A DNA stretch of 64,000 bases from Candidatus Hermodarchaeota archaeon. GTDB lineage: Archaea; Asgardarchaeota; Lokiarchaeia; Sigyniarchaeales; SOKP01. Every line of letters starts with the position of its first letter. Positions within the stretch are counted from its first letter, which is position 1. The notes beneath the pieces were generated by a model. That model had not been told where the DNA came from. It searched no databases and saw nothing but the letters and a program-made list of their open reading frames with translations. The position numbers and the translations under genes were made by a program. The stretch lies in assembly GCA_048885925.1 (NCBI GenBank), contig JBHLLG010000004.1:19503-83502 (forward strand), read 5' to 3'. Below are positions 57,181 through 64,000 of this stretch, piece after piece.

Positions 57181-58491
57181 TTATATTTTAATATTAATAT
57201 GACCATAAGTGCCACCACCTCCAGGAGTATATTCAATTTCATTATTTCTGAGAGCTTTTACGACTAAAGCTATATTAACGTCAAGTTTTTCAATTTTACT
57301 TATTGGAATATCTATTAAAATTTCAAATTCAGTTCCTAGTTCTCTGATAATTTTATTATATTCGTTTAAAACCGTCTTACTTGTTAAGCTTTTAATGTTT
57401 TTAATAGAACGGATAATATCTATTAATGGAACTGCATTAATATATGGAGGTCTATGATCGGGATGTCTAGGCTCTTTATATGTAGAAATTTTTTCAATCC
57501 TTTCACTAACTCCTAATTTAATTTTAAATGATTTATTTAATTGTTCTTTACAAGCTGAACAGATCATCTTACTATTTGAAACTTTTTCTAAATAATCTAA
57601 TCTTGAAGCTATAGGATCTACTGAGTAGTAAGTAATAAAATTATCATTAATTGAATATTGATTAAAAATCAAATCCGTTTGTTTTTTTGTTTTCTTAAAC
57701 ATTATCCTTCTCCTACATTTACTACAGAACATAACATAATATTTCCCTAGTTTAGGATTTAAACCAACATTTAATATTATTTTTCTTCCATTTTTTCTCT
57801 CTATTGCTTGTACAACTTCAACAAATGATGGATTATCAATATCAAACCTATTAAATTCTCTTCCCAAAGATCGTGGATCTTGTGAATGTGCATCACTATT
57901 ACTTAGAAATGTGACATTTTTTAGACATTCTAATCTGTCTGCAAGTTCAGTATTGGCAGAAAGTCCTAACTCAATAAATTTAATTTTCTGAGCAGCATTA
58001 GAATAACAATCCTCAAGAGTTTTGAATTTATTTTGTCGAAAGATTGCTTTAAAAGGTGTGAAAGCATGAGCAGGACCAATCAACCCCCCCTCATCCGAAA
58101 TAATATCAGTTAATTCTGCTGGAGATAGATTTACTCTTGGTCGCCCACCCCACTCACCTAAAATATTACTTGAATAAGGTTCTAATTTTTTTTGAATAGC
58201 CTCTACCATATTGAAATCTTCGAAAAATATTACTTCATGAACATTTTCTTTATCCTCTATTTCAGTTTGAAGAATAAAATAAATATCCTTATAATAATAA
58301 GCTCCATCTCTATTTTTTTCCAAATTACTTTTTAAGTGTTTAAGCCAATTTGGTTGTAAGACATCACCCGTACCTAGAATATGCAAACCTTTTTTTTTAC
58401 AAGTATCGAACATTGTATCTAGATTTAATGATTTCGACACTCCTATTGAATGTGGAGAATGTATATGTAAATCTGCGTTAAAAAAATCCAT
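57181..58491 (-). CDS. endQ: Endonuclease Q (PHP-domain deaminated-base endonuclease)
   Basis: ADLHIHSPHS, GTGD, GPAHAFTP, LSNSDAHS, LGREFNRF, Zn-finger CSKC...CSACK, C-terminal PGGGGTYG. Colinear with my recollection of Pyrococcus EndoQ. Confidence 0.8.
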   Translation of the reverse strand: MDFFNADLHIHSPHSIGVSKSLNLDTMFDTCKKKGLHILGTGDVLQPNWLKHLKSNLEKNRDGAYYYKDIYFILQTEIEDKENVHEVIFFEDFNMVEAIQKKLEPYSSNILGEWGGRPRVNLSPAELTDIISDEGGLIGPAHAFTPFKAIFRQNKFKTLEDCYSNAAQKIKFIELGLSANTELADRLECLKNVTFLSNSDAHSQDPRSLGREFNRFDIDNPSFVEVVQAIERKNGRKIILNVGLNPKLGKYYVMFCSKCRRRIMFKKTKKQTDLIFNQYSINDNFITYYSVDPIASRLDYLEKVSNSKMICSACKEQLNKSFKIKLGVSERIEKISTYKEPRHPDHRPPYINAVPLIDIIRSIKNIKSLTSKTVLNEYNKIIRELGTEFEILIDIPISKIEKLDVNIALVVKALRNNEIEYTPGGGGTYGHINIKI

Positions 58492-58559
58492 TTAATTCAT
58501 GAACTATTAATTTTATTTATATTTTTATTTTAATATAATTAAGATTCTTTTATTTACGT

Positions 58560-59606
58560 TTAAATAATGATCATTTTATCATAGATAGGATCAGTTAATA
58601 GAATTCTAAAATAAGATAATGTATTTTTATAATTTATTTGTTCTAACTTACCTTCAACTAATACATCCTCACCTTTTTTTGCATGTTCGCAAAAACGACC
58701 CCTGAATGATATAATTTCAATTATATCTTTTTCACGTATTTGATTTAATTTAAATTTGGTTTCGAGCATTTTTTTAGTATTTATTTTATATGAGCAAGGT
58801 GTAAAAAGAGAGTCTGTTGAATCTAAGATATTCGCTTTGAGTTTCACATGTCCATAATTTTTAAACTGATAATCATAAAAATTTCCTTTCCAGTCTCTAG
58901 GGTTTTTTATATATCTAATAAAAAAATTACGATCCATAAATTTACCTTGATGTTGCTTCCTTTGTTCAATTTTCAGAAAATTTTCAAATGAAATACTGGA
59001 TCCACCAGCTCTCCATTGATAATGAGATTTATATTCATCTAAATTATACTTCCGAAAATTACCTGATTTTTTAAATAATTCTGTCAATTTATCTTGAAAG
59101 TTCAAACTGGTTTCAGTACCATATATGATTACATCTATATCTGAATTGTTAGTATCTAACCCAACCATTGTTGACCCAGTAATTCCTATTGAATTCTGAG
59201 AAAGGTTCCCTTCATTAATAAAAAACTCGCATAAATCTTTAGAAATTTTTTGAATTATAGATAAATTTTTTTCATTTAATAATTTTTTAAAGAAGCTGCT
59301 TGGAGTATAAATTTTTTTGATATCTTTTATTTTAACTCCTTGGACCTCCATATCGAGTTCTTTAGAAAAAAAAAGATATTTTGGATATTTCTCTCTTAAA
59401 AAATCATATCTTTCGTATAAGTTGTAAATTTTTTGAAACTTTATACCATCTTTCTCTCTATCTCCATCTGGATGAGGATAAAATCTTAAAAAGCAAATCT
59501 TACGTTCTTTTGGATGAAGTAAACCTTTTACATCAAAAAATAAGTTATCTTTTTTTGTTTCTATATAATCCCCTTCAATACCTTTGATAATTTTCATTAA
59601 TTTCAC
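58560..59606 (-). CDS. Predicted Pol-beta-superfamily nucleotidyltransferase with C-terminal OB-like domain
   Basis: GITGSTMVGLDTNNSDIDVIIYG (GS...DxD NTase motif). C-terminal RGRFCEHAKKGEDVLVEGKLE. Confidence 0.5.
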   Translation of the reverse strand: MKLMKIIKGIEGDYIETKKDNLFFDVKGLLHPKERKICFLRFYPHPDGDREKDGIKFQKIYNLYERYDFLREKYPKYLFFSKELDMEVQGVKIKDIKKIYTPSSFFKKLLNEKNLSIIQKISKDLCEFFINEGNLSQNSIGITGSTMVGLDTNNSDIDVIIYGTETSLNFQDKLTELFKKSGNFRKYNLDEYKSHYQWRAGGSSISFENFLKIEQRKQHQGKFMDRNFFIRYIKNPRDWKGNFYDYQFKNYGHVKLKANILDSTDSLFTPCSYKINTKKMLETKFKLNQIREKDIIEIISFRGRFCEHAKKGEDVLVEGKLEQINYKNTLSYFRILLTDPIYDKMIII

Positions 59607-59617
59607 AATAAATCTGA

Positions 59618-60754
59618 TTAATATTTTGAAGGAGTTTTCGATTTAATTTTATGCTTTGGTATAGTTTTAGTTTTCTTTATTTCCCTTTCAAAGTTTCTTT
59701 TTTCATTTAGAAATCTTTGCTTATCCTGTTCTAATTTTTCTCTTTCACGTCTGATGATACTTTTCTCATTTTCTAAGTATGACTTTTCTTTTTCTAATTG
59801 TCTATAATCATTATTTAATTTACTAAATTTTTCTTCTAATTTTGGGATTTTAGAGTTTAAGGAGTGATAAGTACTTTCTGCTCGAGGTAGCTTTTTCTCT
59901 AATTCATTTAATCTTGCTTCATGTTGCTTTCTTCTTTTTTCTAAATCTTTTACATCTTTTTCCATCTTTTCTTTAGCTTTTCGGAGATCTGCATTCTTTT
60001 TATCAATTTCACGAGCTTTTAGATCTAAATCTTGTTTTCTATAACGAGTTTTTTCTCTTTCTTCTTTCAATTTTTTTTTCTCGTCAGAGATTCGATTTTT
60101 TTCATCATTAATTTCCCTTTTTAAATTACTAATTTCTCTATCTAAATTATCTCTCTCTTTAGTTAAGTGTTTAATTTCATTTCTCAAATCCATTAACTTA
60201 TCTTCTAAATTATTTATAGTTCTATTTAAAGCATCCTCTCTTCTTTCCATTCCGGGAAGTTTTGTTTTAATTTCTTTAATGCGATTTTCTGTGTTTTCTT
60301 TTTCTTTCTCTAATAAATTCTTTTCTTTTCCTATTTGTTCTCGAACTTTATTTAATTTTTCTTGGAATGTTTCTAATTCAGCTTTTTTTTGATTTAACTC
60401 TTCATTTCTTCTTCTGAATTTTTCTTTAAATTGTCTTTCTTTATTAGTTAAATCATCATTTTGCTGTTGAATTTTACTCTTTAGATAATTTAATTCTTTT
60501 TCTAGCTTATCGCGTTTTTCAAGAAGATCTTTGATTTCTAATTCTCGATTTTTTCTTTTTTTTTCAAGATCTTGGACATTATCTTTATAATCTTGAATTT
60601 GTCTAACAACTTTTTCCCATTCGGTTTTTTCTTTATCTAATTTAACTCTTTCTTTTTTTATTTTTTTAAGTAGTTTTTTATCGGAAATTACTTCAATTTC
60701 CTCTTCGGGTGTTTTTTCTCGAATTTGATATTTAGGAATAGTTTCGTCATTCAT
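59618..60754 (-). CDS. Long coiled-coil protein (K/E/R-rich)
   Basis: 378 aa, almost entirely heptad-like charged repeats. No enzymatic motif. Confidence 0.5.
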   Translation of the reverse strand: MNDETIPKYQIREKTPEEEIEVISDKKLLKKIKKERVKLDKEKTEWEKVVRQIQDYKDNVQDLEKKRKNRELEIKDLLEKRDKLEKELNYLKSKIQQQNDDLTNKERQFKEKFRRRNEELNQKKAELETFQEKLNKVREQIGKEKNLLEKEKENTENRIKEIKTKLPGMERREDALNRTINNLEDKLMDLRNEIKHLTKERDNLDREISNLKREINDEKNRISDEKKKLKEEREKTRYRKQDLDLKAREIDKKNADLRKAKEKMEKDVKDLEKRRKQHEARLNELEKKLPRAESTYHSLNSKIPKLEEKFSKLNNDYRQLEKEKSYLENEKSIIRREREKLEQDKQRFLNEKRNFEREIKKTKTIPKHKIKSKTPSKY

Positions 60755-60964: not shown

Positions 60965-61366
60965 ATGGGTTTTGATGATGATTTTGATGAAGATTTTGAT
61001 GAAGAGCTAGACGAAGATTTGGATGAGGATTTGGATGAAAAAATAGAAGAACCTGCTTCAAAAGCTCCTACAGAAGTAGTTGAATCAAAAACTCCTGCAA
61101 CTAAAGTTATTGTTGAGGGAAAAAAGATATCATTATATTTTATGTCGACAATAGGACCTGGAGAAAAAAAGCAAAAATTACTCGTAAATACTGGAAATAA
61201 TGTTGGAGATGTTAAAGAAACTGTAGCAAACTTATTTGGATTAGATCCTGCTGATTTTCATTTATCATCTGGTGGAGTTACAATGGATGAGAATTCATAT
61301 TTAAAAGATTATAATATAAGTGATGGTGACGATATACTTTTAATTCCAGCGAGTACAGCTGGTTAA
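60965..61366 (+). CDS. Ubiquitin-like beta-grasp protein with acidic N-terminal extension, C-terminus ...STAG (Ubl1)
   Basis: The C-terminal ~75 aa is colinear with 63233..63565 (LYFMSTIGPGEKK, DFHLSSGGVTMDEN, KDYN, GDDILLIPASTAG-stop). It ends on Gly with no extension. Confidence 0.7.
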   Translation: MGFDDDFDEDFDEELDEDLDEDLDEKIEEPASKAPTEVVESKTPATKVIVEGKKISLYFMSTIGPGEKKQKLLVNTGNNVGDVKETVANLFGLDPADFHLSSGGVTMDENSYLKDYNISDGDDILLIPASTAG

Positions 61367-61411
61367 ATATTTAAGTTAAAATCAGTATATTTAAAATAAA
61401 AAATCTTTTTT

Positions 61412-62206
61412 TTAACTCTTTTCTTTTCTTGAGGGAATTAGAGCAATTTCATCATCTTCGCTTATATCATAATCTTTTATTTGTAAGGTTTCATTCAATA
61501 ATATTCCTCCAGAAGAAAGAAGAAAAGATTCTAGATCATAATCAAACAGTTTACCAATTCTCTCCTTAATTAAACTTAGTAATTCCATTCTCTCAATGAT
61601 AATTATTTTTGTTTTTTCTCCAGGTTCAAGTAAAGACCTTACATAAACGCGGGTTTGATCTTCAAGGTCAATAGGATTTATAGGTGGTGTATATACAATA
61701 TCTTCATCAACTCTATCTCTATTCTTTAGCATATTTTCAATCAATACTTTTCTTTCATGTGAATTAAAATAAATCATTTCTCTAATAAACAAAATCTTAT
61801 CCATTTTTGATAATCCGAGAAGATTTATCTTATCCAATTCTTCTTGGCTAAAAATTGAAAAAATATATTTATCAATTATCGGCTTATCCTTATATGATTC
61901 ATTCGATTCAATATATTCTTCTATTGAAGGCATAGCTTCAATATAATCATCAAAAATGCTAGTAGGTATCCTTTTAATTGATTTTTTTTCTGCAATAAAC
62001 TTTTTTTTTCGTACCTTGTCACCCCAATTATCTTGAGATTGAATAATAGTATAAATGGTACTTGTAGATAATATTGCTACACTCCCAATTGTGAGAGAAA
62101 AAAATAATGGAATACTGTCTATACGATAAAAGAAAAAAGCTACATAAGCTAAAATAAAAAAAATATAAAGTGCAAAAACACTAAAAATTCTATATTTTTT
62201 CCTCAT
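61412..62206 (-). CDS. Membrane-anchored protein with C-terminal ubiquitin-like beta-grasp domain
   Basis: Two N-terminal TM segments. C-terminal VYVRSLLEPGEKTKIII...FLLSSGGILLNETLQIKDYDISEDDEIALIPSRKEKS is homologous to the Ubl genes but has no terminal Gly. Confidence 0.6.
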   Translation of the reverse strand: MRKKYRIFSVFALYIFFILAYVAFFFYRIDSIPLFFSLTIGSVAILSTSTIYTIIQSQDNWGDKVRKKKFIAEKKSIKRIPTSIFDDYIEAMPSIEEYIESNESYKDKPIIDKYIFSIFSQEELDKINLLGLSKMDKILFIREMIYFNSHERKVLIENMLKNRDRVDEDIVYTPPINPIDLEDQTRVYVRSLLEPGEKTKIIIIERMELLSLIKERIGKLFDYDLESFLLSSGGILLNETLQIKDYDISEDDEIALIPSRKEKS

Positions 62207-62291
62207 AATTTTTTAAATAGATTTTGTTCTGAATTCTAAATATTTAATTTGACATATAAATTCCATTGGAATAAATTTGAAGTTTTAATAT

Positions 62292-62963
62292 TCATACTCC
62301 TTGAATTGATTTTTTAACTTGAGAATATTTTTCTCTATCTAACCTAAATAACTTTCTTTTTCCATCTTCTTCGATTCTTATCAATTTCAGATCTTTTAGA
62401 ATATCTAAATATTTTTTTATAATATTATGATTTTTTTTCAAATTGACAGATATTTCTGTAATTTTCAGTTCTTTATTTGCTTCTTCCATAAAATTAATTA
62501 TTTTTTGAACGATTTTCTTCTTCAAATAATAATATAATTCATCAAATTCAGGATTTGAATCAAATTTAAAGAAAATTCTGTGATTATTGATTTTTTTTGA
62601 TCTAACAAAATTAAATTTTTCTAAGCAGGATAAATGCCATAAAACTTGGTTGCTTCCGATATTTAAAACTTTCATTATTTTGTTAATATTAGATGGATTC
62701 TTTTTAATATAATTTAGGATCTCATTTCTAGTAGGATTTTCAACTATATTATTTTTCATTAGTCTAGTTCCAGGGATAATAATACGTCTTTTTAGTAACT
62801 TCTTTAAAATTAACTCTATACTATTTTCGTTAATATTAGGATTATATTTTACCCTATTATTTATATAGGATATAATGTCTCTTATCGAAAAAAAGCTCTT
62901 TTTTGTTAAATACTCCTCTACTAATTCAAGAACAATAGGTTCAATATTATTAAGAGAAGTCAT
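62292..62963 (-). CDS. Winged-HTH (ArsR-like) transcriptional regulator, two wHTH units
   Basis: NPTRNEILNYIKKNPSNINKIMKVLNIGSNQVLWHLSCLEKFNFV, plus a second wHTH-like C-terminal unit. Confidence 0.6.
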   Translation of the reverse strand: MTSLNNIEPIVLELVEEYLTKKSFFSIRDIISYINNRVKYNPNINENSIELILKKLLKRRIIIPGTRLMKNNIVENPTRNEILNYIKKNPSNINKIMKVLNIGSNQVLWHLSCLEKFNFVRSKKINNHRIFFKFDSNPEFDELYYYLKKKIVQKIINFMEEANKELKITEISVNLKKNHNIIKKYLDILKDLKLIRIEEDGKRKLFRLDREKYSQVKKSIQGV

Positions 62964-63232
62964 AATCCTATATTATTAATATGTTGAAATTTAATGGGTT
63001 TTATAATTAAATATTCTCTCTAATACAACATTTTATATTTTATATATATTAATAGGCATTCATACAATTTATAATATAATTTATTGAAATTCATAATTTC
63101 TCCATTTTATTCGGGATAAAGATCTGAAAAAACTTCAAAATCATTCCAAAGGGTTTTATAATATTTTTTTAACGCTATTTTATTAAATTTAACAAAATTA
63201 AAAAATCAAATAATTAAAAAAAAGTGATATGA

Positions 63233-63565
63233 ATGAGTTTTGATGAATTTGATGAGGATTTAGGGATGGAGGAACCAGTAAAATCTAAAACTCCCGCTAC
63301 TAAAATTCCTTCCGCAGGAAAGAAATTGACTTTATATTTCATGTCTACCATCGGACCTGGTGAAAAAAAGGAAAAATTAACTGTTAACGATAACAATCGT
63401 ATAAGAGATATTAAAAATACATTAGGAAATTTATATGGACTTGATCCTAATGATTTTCATTTATCTTCGGGTGGAGTTACAATGGATGAAAATAGTACAT
63501 TAAAAGACTATAATCTTAATAATGGTGATGATATTCTTTTAATTCCTGCTAGCACAGCTGGATAA
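63233..63565 (+). CDS. Ubiquitin-like beta-grasp protein, C-terminus ...STAG (Ubl2)
   Basis: 110 aa. Short acidic N-terminus (MSFDEFDEDLGMEEP), KTPATK motif, beta-grasp core shared with Ubl1. It lies directly upstream of the E1-like gene. Confidence 0.7.
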   Translation: MSFDEFDEDLGMEEPVKSKTPATKIPSAGKKLTLYFMSTIGPGEKKEKLTVNDNNRIRDIKNTLGNLYGLDPNDFHLSSGGVTMDENSTLKDYNLNNGDDILLIPASTAG

Positions 63566-63597
63566 ACTTATATAATTTTTTTCATAAACTATAATGT

Positions 63598-63630
63598 AAG
63601 GGCTTTAAGCCCTTAAATTTTTTTTATTTT
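63598..63630 (+). terminator. GC-clamped hairpin plus oligo-T tract between Ubl2 and the E1-like gene
   Basis: AAGGGC (63598-603) pairs with GCCCTT (63609-614) around a 5-nt loop, followed by a T-run from 63618. It is the only GC-rich stem in this AT-rich spacer. Confidence 0.4.
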
Positions 63631-63646
63631 ATAATGATTATTATTG

Positions 63647-64000
63647 GTGTTTATATTGAAAAATAGGTCAGATTTTTTTAGTAAAGAGCTAACAACGGAA
63701 GAGAAAAAATTATACGACCGCCAATTTAGGCTTGAAGGATGGTCGCAAAAATTAGTAAAGAATTCTCGCGTTTTAATGATAGGTGTAGGAGGATTAGGGT
63801 GCGAAATTGCAAAGAATCTAGCAATGCTAGGAGTAGGGCATTTAGATTTAGTAGATCTTGATATCATTGAACATTCAAATCTAAATCGCCAAATCTTATT
63901 TGCTGGAGCAAAAGTAGGAGAATCAAAAGCACTTGTTGCAGCAAGAAAATTAACTGAAATTAACCCTAATACTATAATAAAAGGTTATCAAACTTCCCTA
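63647..64000 (+). CDS. E1-like ubiquitin-activating / ThiF-MoeB-UbaA family protein (N-terminal part, continues past window)
   Basis: YDRQFRLEGW, GVGGLGCEIAKNLAMLGVG (GxGxxG), DLDIIEHSNLNRQILF. The start is uncertain (TTG 63644, GTG 63647 or TTG 63656). The listed antisense ORF 63613..63867 is a shadow. Confidence 0.85.
   Translation, partial: MFILKNRSDFFSKELTTEEKKLYDRQFRLEGWSQKLVKNSRVLMIGVGGLGCEIAKNLAMLGVGHLDLVDLDIIEHSNLNRQILFAGAKVGESKALVAARKLTEINPNTIIKGYQTSL

Follow-up and report, generated by a model that had tools for sequence, protein, structure and literature searches.

A Conserved Ubiquitin-like Gene Cluster with Ala-Gly Modifier Termini in Promethearchaeia (Lokiarchaeia)

Gene Content of the Cluster

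The window analyzed in this study is a 64,000-nucleotide stretch of contig JBHLLG010000004.1 from Candidatus Hermodarchaeota archaeon, with a G+C content of ~28%. Its 3′ end carries a cluster of ubiquitin-like (Ubl) genes, which is the subject of this work. The first gene, Ubl1 (60965..61366, plus strand), was identified from its open reading frame (ORF) and sequence and encodes a free ubiquitin-family modifier of 133 aa. Two genes on the minus strand follow. TM-Ubl (61412..62206) encodes a 264-aa protein with two transmembrane (TM) segments and a C-terminal Ubl domain, and the winged helix-turn-helix (wHTH) gene (62292..62963) encodes a 223-aa tandem winged-helix protein that is ArsR/SmtB-like. 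The main modifier gene, Ubl2 (63233..63565, plus strand; 110 aa), is divergent from wHTH, and the intergenic region between the two (62964..63232, to which no strand applies) contains conserved blocks. Between Ubl2 and the gene of the activating enzyme E1 lies a GC-rich hairpin, TAAGGGCTTTAAGCCCTTA, followed by T8 (63597..63625, plus strand), which is a candidate terminator or attenuator. The E1 gene (63656..64000, plus strand) runs past the end of the window, which holds the N-terminal 114 residues of a protein whose full length is 407–411 aa. An earlier annotation made from the letters of this DNA alone (the sequence-only reading) had placed five genes here, and the ORFs and sequence bear out all five.

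A family profile matched exactly the Ubl2, Ubl1, and TM-Ubl ORFs among the 401 ORFs of the window (E = 7e-65, 3e-50, and 3e-37, respectively), so this trio is not a product of chance. Profile and query searches of the window ORFs found no other Ubl, E2, JAB, or RING-like gene in the remaining 60 kb. The sequence-only reading had also seen no E2, RING, or JAMM gene within the window; queries with the E2, the JAB protein, and the membrane zinc-finger protein described below matched nothing there.

The continuation of the cluster was reached through orthologues. An Ubl2 with 89% identity led to the long contigs L002–L005, the last cluster gene of these led to the protein P0218, and P0218 led to the contigs L008 and L009. 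The genes 3′ of Ubl2 in L002–L005 encode, in this order, a 415–421-aa ThiF-family E1, a 175-aa UQ_con E2, a 270–276-aa JAB protein, and a 390–394-aa protein without a Pfam match, after which come unrelated pterin/F420 genes. P0218 is a membrane protein of 385 aa and is encoded on two short contigs of sister assemblies, L008 and L009. Window positions 63300..64000 are overlapped by L009 at 100% identity and by L008 at 99.86% identity, and we therefore take these contigs as the continuation of the window. Their plus-strand genes encode E1 (407–411 aa), E2 (175 aa), JAB (271–276 aa), and the 385-aa membrane protein (hereafter TM-RING). Inspection of the downstream DNA for E2, E3, and JAMM genes was thus positive, with an E2, a JAMM protease, and a RING-like candidate located 3′ of E1 in L008/L009.

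In the "chromosome-level" assembly CP070831.1 (L001), the E1 gene seemed to break off early, with a topoisomerase-like zinc-finger ORF behind it. This arrangement was rejected in favor of an assembly gap of 100 N (L001:10699-10798) inside the E1 gene. An unrelated zinc-finger ORF and an actin homologue lie past the gap, which points to a scaffolding join or a misassembly.

The Ala-Gly Modifier Family

Ubl1 and Ubl2 are 72–73% identical across the aligned part, and both end in ...LLIPASTAG directly at the stop codon. Ubl1 has a long acidic/Phe-rich N-terminal extension, the motif SKTPATK, and a beta-grasp core. Ubl2 has a short acidic/Phe N-terminal motif (MSFDEFDEDL), the motif KSKTPATK, and a beta-grasp core. 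The acidic, Phe-containing extensions followed by SKTPATK that the sequence-only reading had described are therefore present in both proteins.

Ubl2 matched the Pfam ubiquitin family PF00240 with 28.2 bits, above the gathering score of 25.4, and Ubl1 fell slightly under this score (24.2 bits, E = 2.8e-5). No Pfam match to ThiS/MoaD at E <= 1 and no NCBIfam match was obtained for Ubl1, Ubl2, or TM-Ubl. A Pfam match to Rad60-SLD (SUMO-like) was subthreshold (22.5 vs 23.8 bits). The AlphaFold2 model of Ubl2 comprises a beta-grasp core at residues ~31–105 with a predicted local distance difference test (pLDDT) score of ~90, preceded by unstructured residues 1–25 with a pLDDT < 50. The best Foldseek match in the PDB was the ubiquitin of Caldiarchaeum subterraneum (6FNO_D, E = 1.5e-7, TM-score 0.81 on the target), and ubiquitin variants, NEDD8, SUMO1, and ISG15 were further matches (E = 1e-7 to 1e-6 across CsUb, Ub, NEDD8, and SUMO). 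The beta-grasp fold proposed earlier for the Ubl cores thus agrees with the predicted structure of Ubl2. The sequence identity of Ubl2 was 24% to ubiquitin, 22% to NEDD8, 21% to SUMO1, and 17% to UFM1. An assignment of the modifier to SUMO, NEDD8, or ubiquitin specifically was considered and dropped because the scores do not discriminate. The last Lys/Arg residue of Ubl2 is K91.

Among 894 homologues of Ubl2, the top 120 were 83–100% identical and all came from Asgard metagenome-assembled genomes (MAGs); one of the homologues, P0001, is an exact copy. The terminus STAG occurred in 114 of these 120 closest homologues, and 41 of the 47 distinct best-matching Ubl1 ORFs of related loci end in AS[ITV]AG. 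When 1.8 billion cluster representatives were searched exhaustively, 449 relatives were recovered. The Ubl domain of the nearer relatives (40–73% identity) is always at the extreme C-terminus and ends in [ST]-x-Ala-Gly (STAG, SRAG, SVAG, SLAG, TTAG, or SHAG), either at the stop codon or with 1–6 residues behind it. The next tier, which lies outside the Ala-Gly family, consists of eukaryotic polyubiquitins at ~24% identity. The terminal Gly is invariant and the penultimate residue is Ala, so the family lacks the di-glycine by which modifiers of Caldiarchaeum/Asgard-type operons are recognized. As judged from sequence, the family has a conjugatable terminal Gly although the di-glycine is absent.

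The departure from Gly-Gly that had been read from the two window genes therefore extends to the whole family, among homologues and loci. The companion claim, that the modifiers need no processing, is correct for the window genes and fails for the family, because relatives carry tails of 1–6 residues after Ala-Gly or are tandem poly-Ubl precursors. Two such head-to-tail precursors are P0241 (3 units) and P0242 (2 units), in which the acidic/Phe stretch and KSKTP recur in every unit. In other members (among P0256, P0273, and P0249), a HerA-like ATPase, CDC48_N plus VWA, or a zinc-ribbon/coiled-coil region carries the Ubl domain as a C-terminal fusion.

Although predicted to be disordered, the N-terminus hardly varies among aligned close homologues (M1, F3, F6–L10, S18–A22), which implies that it contains short linear motifs under selection. 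Among the 26 distinct Ubl1 extensions with definable limits, the length ranges from 23 to 118 aa (median 52), with 50% Asp plus Glu and 9% Phe. Three signatures mark the family: its Ala-Gly terminus, the acidic/Phe block, and the KSKTP motif.

A solitary third Ubl2-like gene of 110 aa, ~87% identical and ending in ASTAG, was present in unrelated neighborhoods at ~30 further loci (for example L023:6992-7333; also L016, L018–L020, L022, L024, L026, and L028). Since such copies occur in many Promethearchaeia genomes, the modifier is multi-copy, as is eukaryotic ubiquitin.

The Activating Enzyme E1

The start of E1 is the TTG at 63656, with a GGTG Shine-Dalgarno-like element ahead of it; a second in-frame TTG is located at 63644. 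The window fragment matched ThiF with E = 1.8e-31 and already contains the nucleotide-binding motifs, including GVGGLGCE and NLNRQ. A full-length E1 orthologue matched ThiF with E = 3e-61. The best solved relatives were SAE2/UBA2 (E = 1e-38), UBA1, and UBA3 (range to 1e-34), with MoeB slightly behind. The E1 segment AACTVVGVPRKRIHC aligned with the SAE2 segment PGCTIRNTPSEPIHC, which holds the catalytic Cys173, and the CYEC zinc motif aligned with SAE2 too. The scores against curated NCBIfam models were far under the cut-offs: 144 vs 449 for MoeB, 138 vs 275 for ThiF, and 109 vs 450 for UbaA. The sequence-only reading had called this enzyme "ThiF/UbaA-type". The affinity to SAE2, UBA1, and UBA3, the aligned Cys and CYEC motif, and the sub-cut-off NCBIfam scores instead identify it as a canonical-type single-chain E1, not a UbaA-type one. 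It is probably a homodimer.

E2, JAB Protease, and the Membrane RING-like Protein

The E2 matched UQ_con with E = 2e-26 (L002 orthologue). The protein encoded in L008 contains WHPNF...NICLALV, which comprises the HPN motif and the catalytic Cys. It matched canonical E2s of ubiquitin, SUMO, and NEDD8 without preference (E = 1e-15 to 1e-11). A chemistry that uses E1 only does not agree with a canonical E2 directly 3′ of E1.

The JAB protein matched its family with E = 9e-17 (L002 orthologue), and the copy in L008 has an intact HSHPx7SxxD motif. Its best matches were CsRpn11 (E = 1.3e-14), Rpn11, and CSN5.

TM-RING has 5–6 hydrophobic segments, which form a TM domain without a Pfam match. Its C-terminal domain contains an invariant CxxC-x16-CxxC-x4-H-x13-CxxC pattern (a C2-C2-H-C2 finger). 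Two Pfam matches, Prok-RING_1 (E = 0.027) and zf-RING_16 (E = 0.029), were subthreshold. The AlphaFold2 model was of medium confidence (pLDDT 68). A Foldseek search with it gave no match at E <= 1e-3, and the top 50 were nearly all RING/U-box domains, including RNF4, Rad18, Ring1b/Bmi1, HRD1, Prp19, CHIP, LubX, and IFT-A zinc fingers. These weak but consistent signals point to TM-RING as a candidate membrane E3 with a RING/U-box-like zinc finger. In P0218 (L008:3072-4229), residues ~205–292 form an 87-residue Ser/Arg/Thr-rich low-complexity linker (23 S, 18 R, 13 T) from the TM domain to the zinc finger. This linker is RS-like, and among orthologues its composition is conserved and its sequence variable.

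Synteny and Conservation

Scanning one genome per species gave 80 loci, all from Promethearchaeota/Promethearchaeia-type MAGs. Labels such as "Hodarchaeota" and "Thorarchaeota" were uninformative because they stand on sequences 80–90% identical to Promethearchaeia ones. The same gene order was found in ~50 loci: EndoQ (−), nucleotidyltransferase (−), coiled-coil (−), Ubl1 (+), TM-Ubl (−), wHTH (−), and then Ubl2, E1, E2, JAB, and TM-RING (all +). Ubl2 is directly 5′ of E1 in every locus. The locus L063 differs on its upstream side, where an IS200/IS605-type TnpB-like ORF (416 aa) and unrelated genes stand in place of Ubl1/TM-Ubl/wHTH (L063:1890-3140). Ubl2-E1-E2-JAB-TM-RING is intact there despite this replacement and is therefore the core operon.

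Conservation was measured as the median amino-acid identity to the window lineage. It was highest for E2 (90%), Ubl2 (86%), and E1 (82%). The housekeeping neighbor EndoQ reached 73%, followed by wHTH (72%), JAB (71%), Ubl1 (66%), TM-RING (65%), and TM-Ubl (61%).

The genes invariably upstream of the cluster (window 57181..60754, minus strand) encode an EndoQ-like PHP protein of 436 aa that matched the TIGR00375 family (E = 2e-81), a nucleotidyltransferase-fold protein of 348 aa with only weak Pfam matches, and a Lys/Glu-rich coiled-coil protein of 378 aa. Apart from collinearity, nothing was found that ties this trio functionally to the Ubl system. The genes downstream of the operon (GCHY-1, RibD_C, and CofG/H-like) are pterin/F420-related and lie outside it. 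Molybdenum cofactor, thiamine, and tRNA-thiolation genes were absent from the Pfam families of the genes called within 10 kb on either side (L002–L005 and L008). The neighborhood in these contigs thus gives no evidence of the plain MoaD/ThiS cofactor-biosynthesis context that would have contradicted the sequence-only reading.

TM-Ubl, wHTH, and Putative Regulatory DNA

Hydropathy analysis of TM-Ubl showed two N-terminal hydrophobic segments at residues 7–25 and 29–47. The C-terminal Ubl domain (residues 189–256) matched PF00240 with E = 7.5e-5 and 22.9 bits, under the gathering score of 25.4, and is ~30% identical to Ubl2. The middle region had no Pfam match. The protein ends in ...LIPSRKEKS, without a terminal Gly, and none of its 48 orthologues has the Ala-Gly ending (0/48). 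TM-Ubl is therefore not conjugatable via its C-terminus, and it is probably a membrane adaptor.

The wHTH protein matched HTH_5/ArsR at residues 76–122 (E = 1e-10) and has a second wHTH at residues ~150–204. An NCBIfam ArsR/SmtB subfamily match (E = 3.7e-11) was under the cut-off. The gene is divergent from Ubl2, and its product is probably a local transcription regulator. Two blocks of the intergenic region (63056-63100 and 63128-63190) are >= 90% conserved among 25 distinct orthologous regions from genomes whose DNA is otherwise ~77% identical. A BRE/TATA-like element, AAAGGGTTTTATAATA, is located at ~63149-63164. The sequence ATTCATA is repeated at ~63058 and ~63090 within the conserved blocks and could serve the wHTH protein as an operator. 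A GTGAT Shine-Dalgarno-like element precedes the ATG of Ubl2.

A scan for terminator-like sites gave 5 sites vs 0.7 expected, among them the hairpin at 63597..63625. Its folding energy was −11.4 kcal/mol (z = −1.8). The hairpin and T-run were kept in 45 distinct orthologous loci, with a few compensatory changes in the stem. The hairpin may act as a terminator or attenuator that ends most transcripts after the modifier gene and so sets modifier output above enzyme output. From the divergent ArsR-like wHTH gene, the conserved intergenic blocks with their BRE/TATA-like element, and the conserved hairpin with T8, we infer that the cluster is regulated.

The Separate -QAGG Ubiquitin of Lokiarchaea

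In Lokiarchaeota, ubiquitin and ESCRT genes form two discrete regions, and the "Ub genomic region" was already published by Hatano et al. (PMC9192718). The "Ub" of that study, Lokiarch_37670, is a protein of 88 aa without an extension, ends in ...MATQAGG followed by ISIIH, and is 21% identical to Ubl2. The family of Lokiarch_37670 is conserved and 83–88 aa long, and most members end in TQAGG with a tail of 0–1 residue. Lokiarchaea therefore possess at least two modifiers of the ubiquitin family. Lokiarchaeum GC14_75 has both the -QAGG ubiquitin and an orthologue of the cluster E2; this co-occurrence refers to that genome only. The E2 orthologue A0A0F8VF99 appears in the alignment of E2s and ubiquitin E2 variants of Hatano et al. 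The Lokiarch_37670-like genes on two long contigs (L090:8001-8261 and L093:8001-8255) have no E1, E2, or ESCRT gene within 8 kb, and the L090 copy is near small GTPase genes and a leucine-rich repeat protein.

Proposed Pathway and Alternative Explanations

Taking the gene content, motifs, and synteny together, we consider it likely that the cluster in the window is the upstream half of an operon, conserved in Promethearchaeia (Lokiarchaeia), that encodes a ubiquitin-like conjugation pathway of the eukaryotic type. The sequence-only reading had proposed a ubiquitin-like conjugation system whose modifiers have atypical Ala-Gly ends and extended N-termini, and the match to the Pfam ubiquitin family, the predicted beta-grasp fold, and the E1, E2, and JAB genes agree with it. 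In such a pathway, Ubl2 and Ubl1 would be made with the C-terminal Gly already exposed. E1 would adenylate this Gly and take the modifier onto its catalytic Cys, from which it would be transferred to the Cys of the HPN-type E2. Ligation to target lysines would follow, probably aided by the membrane RING/U-box-like protein encoded by the last gene of the operon. The Rpn11-like JAMM protease would remove the tag and, in relatives, would also trim tails and poly-Ubl precursors. TM-Ubl would serve as a membrane adaptor and the divergent wHTH protein as a regulator. The presence of two membrane proteins in the cluster, one of them with a non-conjugatable Ubl domain, suggests that the pathway operates, at least in part, at the membrane. 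The Ala-Gly end, the acidic/Phe block, and KSKTP probably insulate the pathway from the -QAGG ubiquitin of the same organisms. Equivalent cascades were reconstituted in vitro for Caldiarchaeum (PMC5654768, PMC6043591) and for a Helarchaeon (bioRxiv 10.1101/2023.07.25.550441).

Several points weigh against this interpretation. Conjugation by the Ala-Gly family is argued from homology. The E2, JAB, and TM-RING genes lie outside the window and were read from the overlapping contigs of the sister assemblies. The RING assignment is weak in its model confidence, its Foldseek scores, and its Pfam matches, and the finger has only seven obvious zinc ligands. Collinearity continues far past the cluster (FtsZ, AlaRS, and F420 genes), so adjacency alone is no proof that Ubl1, TM-Ubl, and wHTH belong to it; we count them with the operon because of the shared Ubl domain and the divergent-promoter arrangement. 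Another possible client of this E1 and E2, in addition to the Ala-Gly Ubls or in their place, is the -QAGG ubiquitin. Finally, characterized E1s and JAMM proteases recognize Gly-Gly, and a penultimate Ala does not fit this pattern. In an experiment with CsRpn11, the last Gly of CsUb tolerated a change to Ala, and the penultimate Gly was suggested to be more restricted (PMC6043591). This restriction, set beside a natural penultimate Ala, implies co-adapted pockets in E1 and the protease.

The chemistry and the modifier served by the enzymes could each be explained differently. One explanation is a sulfur-carrier or SAMP/Urm1-type system, an alternative that the sequence-only reading had kept, in which a MoeB/UbaA-like E1 would form thiocarboxylates, or attach the modifier without an E2, for cofactor synthesis or tRNA thiolation. 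The ThiF-fold adenylation domain of E1 does match MoeB, ThiF, and UbaA models (E = 1e-42 to 1e-31) and E. coli MoeB in the PDB, and one poly-Ubl relative is annotated at source as "molybdopterin converting factor small subunit" and has a weak ThiS match. However, these model scores are far under the curated cut-offs (as for UbaA above), the scores of the canonical E1s of eukaryotes equal or exceed that of MoeB, and the catalytic Cys is of the SAE2 type. The modifiers fall in the ubiquitin family, not in ThiS/MoaD, and a canonical E2, an Rpn11-like deubiquitinase, and a RING-like protein share the operon; rhodanese, MoaE, ThiG, and Ncs6 were not seen among the called genes of the neighborhood. 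We therefore regard a sulfur carrier as very improbable. In another explanation, the enzymes of the operon (E1/E2/JAB/RING) mainly serve the ESCRT-linked -QAGG ubiquitin, and the Ala-Gly Ubls are non-covalent adaptors or decoys. The lack of an E1 or E2 within 8 kb of the Lokiarch_37670 family on the two long contigs, the presence of that ubiquitin with the orthologous E2 in Lokiarchaeum GC14_75, and the non-covalent use of the fold that the TM-Ubl paralogue demonstrates all speak for it. Against it stand the invariant terminal Gly, the position of Ubl2 directly upstream of E1 in every locus, and a conservation of Ubl2 as strong as that of E1 and E2. Tails and poly-Ubl precursors, moreover, would be pointless unless cleavage freed the Ala-Gly end for use. 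We judge this explanation unlikely.

The content of Ubl, E1, E2, and JAB genes also resembles Bil-type operons, and the adenylation domain of E1 matched the PADLOC "E1-E2" models of the cyclic-oligonucleotide-based antiphage signaling system (CBASS) with E = 5e-18. The cluster could accordingly be an antiviral defense module of the bacterial Bil or CBASS-Cap2 type, which would tag phage or host proteins during infection. Yet the PADLOC match covers the generic adenylation domain only, the matches of E2 (E = 0.005) and JAB (E = 0.002) were marginal, and the Ubls and the membrane protein had none. The cluster occupies a fixed chromosomal position amid housekeeping genes in ~50 genomes, which is the opposite of patchy, fast-evolving defense islands. 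Its proteins are more conserved than their housekeeping neighbors, and the best relatives are eukaryotic and Caldiarchaeal ubiquitin-system proteins. A defense function is thus very improbable.

We tentatively speculate, as a doubtful proposal, that Lokiarchaeia run two orthogonal Ubl pathways, namely an ESCRT-linked one for -QAGG ubiquitin and an Ala-Gly one with its own E1, E2, and Rpn11-like enzymes, a membrane RING-like ligase, and the TM-Ubl adaptor. Ubl diversification, as between ubiquitin and SUMO/NEDD8, and a Hrd1/Herp-like membrane ligase architecture would then predate eukaryotes, and a specificity code made up of the Ala-Gly end and the conserved acidic/Phe plus KSKTP tail would separate the pathways.

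Ubiquitin-like tagging is a eukaryotic hallmark whose roots have been traced to Asgard archaea. Only Gly-Gly ubiquitins, from Caldiarchaeum and the Hel/Heimdall/Odin lineages, have been tested biochemically so far. A second modifier family occurs in the Lokiarchaeial lineage, to which the cultured Promethearchaeum and Lokiarchaeum belong. This family is extremely conserved and multi-copy, has another terminus and a constrained disordered tail, and appears to be wired to its own enzyme operon and membrane proteins. If it proves to be conjugated separately from the -QAGG ubiquitin, a minimal system would allow tests of three matters: the origin of the multiplicity of Ubl pathways, the encoding of E1 and deubiquitinase specificity for the C-terminal dipeptide, and membrane-bound ubiquitin ligation before the endomembrane system. 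If the family is the Lokiarchaeial ubiquitin in another guise, the result would be a refinement of annotation.

Comparison with Known Systems

A system of this kind is already known in Asgard archaea and Aigarchaeota, and the Lokiarchaeal Ub gene region has been published. The Ala-Gly family with its constrained extension, its paralogous and precursor forms, TM-Ubl, and the polytopic RING-like protein appear to be undescribed. We found no description of the family, its extension, TM-Ubl, or the membrane RING-like protein in the literature searched, whose coverage was incomplete, so that an earlier mention is possible.

The operon of Caldiarchaeum subterraneum (Rpn11-Ub-E2-E1-srfp; PMC5654768, PMC6043591) likewise combines a single-chain E1 and a UBC-fold E2 with a ubiquitin-family modifier and an Rpn11-like JAMM protease, and its zinc-finger E3 has a candidate counterpart in TM-RING. 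CsUb was the best structural match of Ubl2, and CsRpn11 was the best sequence match of JAB. The gene order is different in Caldiarchaeum, and CsUb has Gly-Gly with a 9-residue tail, whereas the cluster modifiers have Ala-Gly at the stop codon and carry the conserved acidic/Phe plus KSKTP N-terminal extension. The cluster family also has two to three free paralogues and a membrane-anchored Ubl-domain protein, and its E3 candidate is a 385-aa polytopic membrane protein, in contrast to the small soluble RING finger of Caldiarchaeum. The ESCRT-linked ubiquitin systems of Asgard archaea (Heimdall/Odin/Hel; PMC9192718, bioRxiv 10.1101/2023.07.25.550441) share the phylum and the enzyme classes. The Lokiarchaeal ubiquitin studied there, however, belongs to another family, which ends in -TQAGG with or without a tail and has no extension.

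IPR018611 was used as an E3 signature by Hatano et al. (PMC9192718). This signature and the single terminal Gly prompted a UFM1-like idea. UFM1, which has a Val-Gly terminus, the E1 UBA5, and the E2 UFC1, likewise has a single terminal Gly after a small hydrophobic residue. The idea was rejected: the identity is 17%, there is no Ufm1 or UFL1 Pfam match, and the E2 keeps the HPN motif, which UFC1 is not known to have. The E1 also speaks against it, with E = 1e-38 on the side of SAE2/UBA1/UBA3 vs 1e-15 to UBA5.

The SUMO pathway shares a beta-grasp modifier with a disordered N-terminal extension; SAE2 was the top-scoring solved relative of E1, and UBC9 aligned over the full E2. It differs in its Gly-Gly terminus, where the cluster has Ala-Gly, and in its Ulp/SENP cysteine protease, where the cluster has a JAMM metalloprotease. 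The E1 of the cluster is a single gene without an SAE1-like partner in the cluster.

Hrd1-Herp/Usa1 and gp78-TMUB1 are membrane ubiquitin ligases with UBL-domain partners that act in endoplasmic-reticulum-associated degradation. No sequence similarity of the cluster membrane domains to Hrd1, gp78, Herp, or TMUB1 was detectable, and the HRD1 RING was one weak Foldseek match of TM-RING among many RINGs. The likeness to these ligases is architectural only: a polytopic protein with a cytosolic RING-like finger at its C-terminus is encoded beside a membrane-anchored, non-conjugatable UBL protein.

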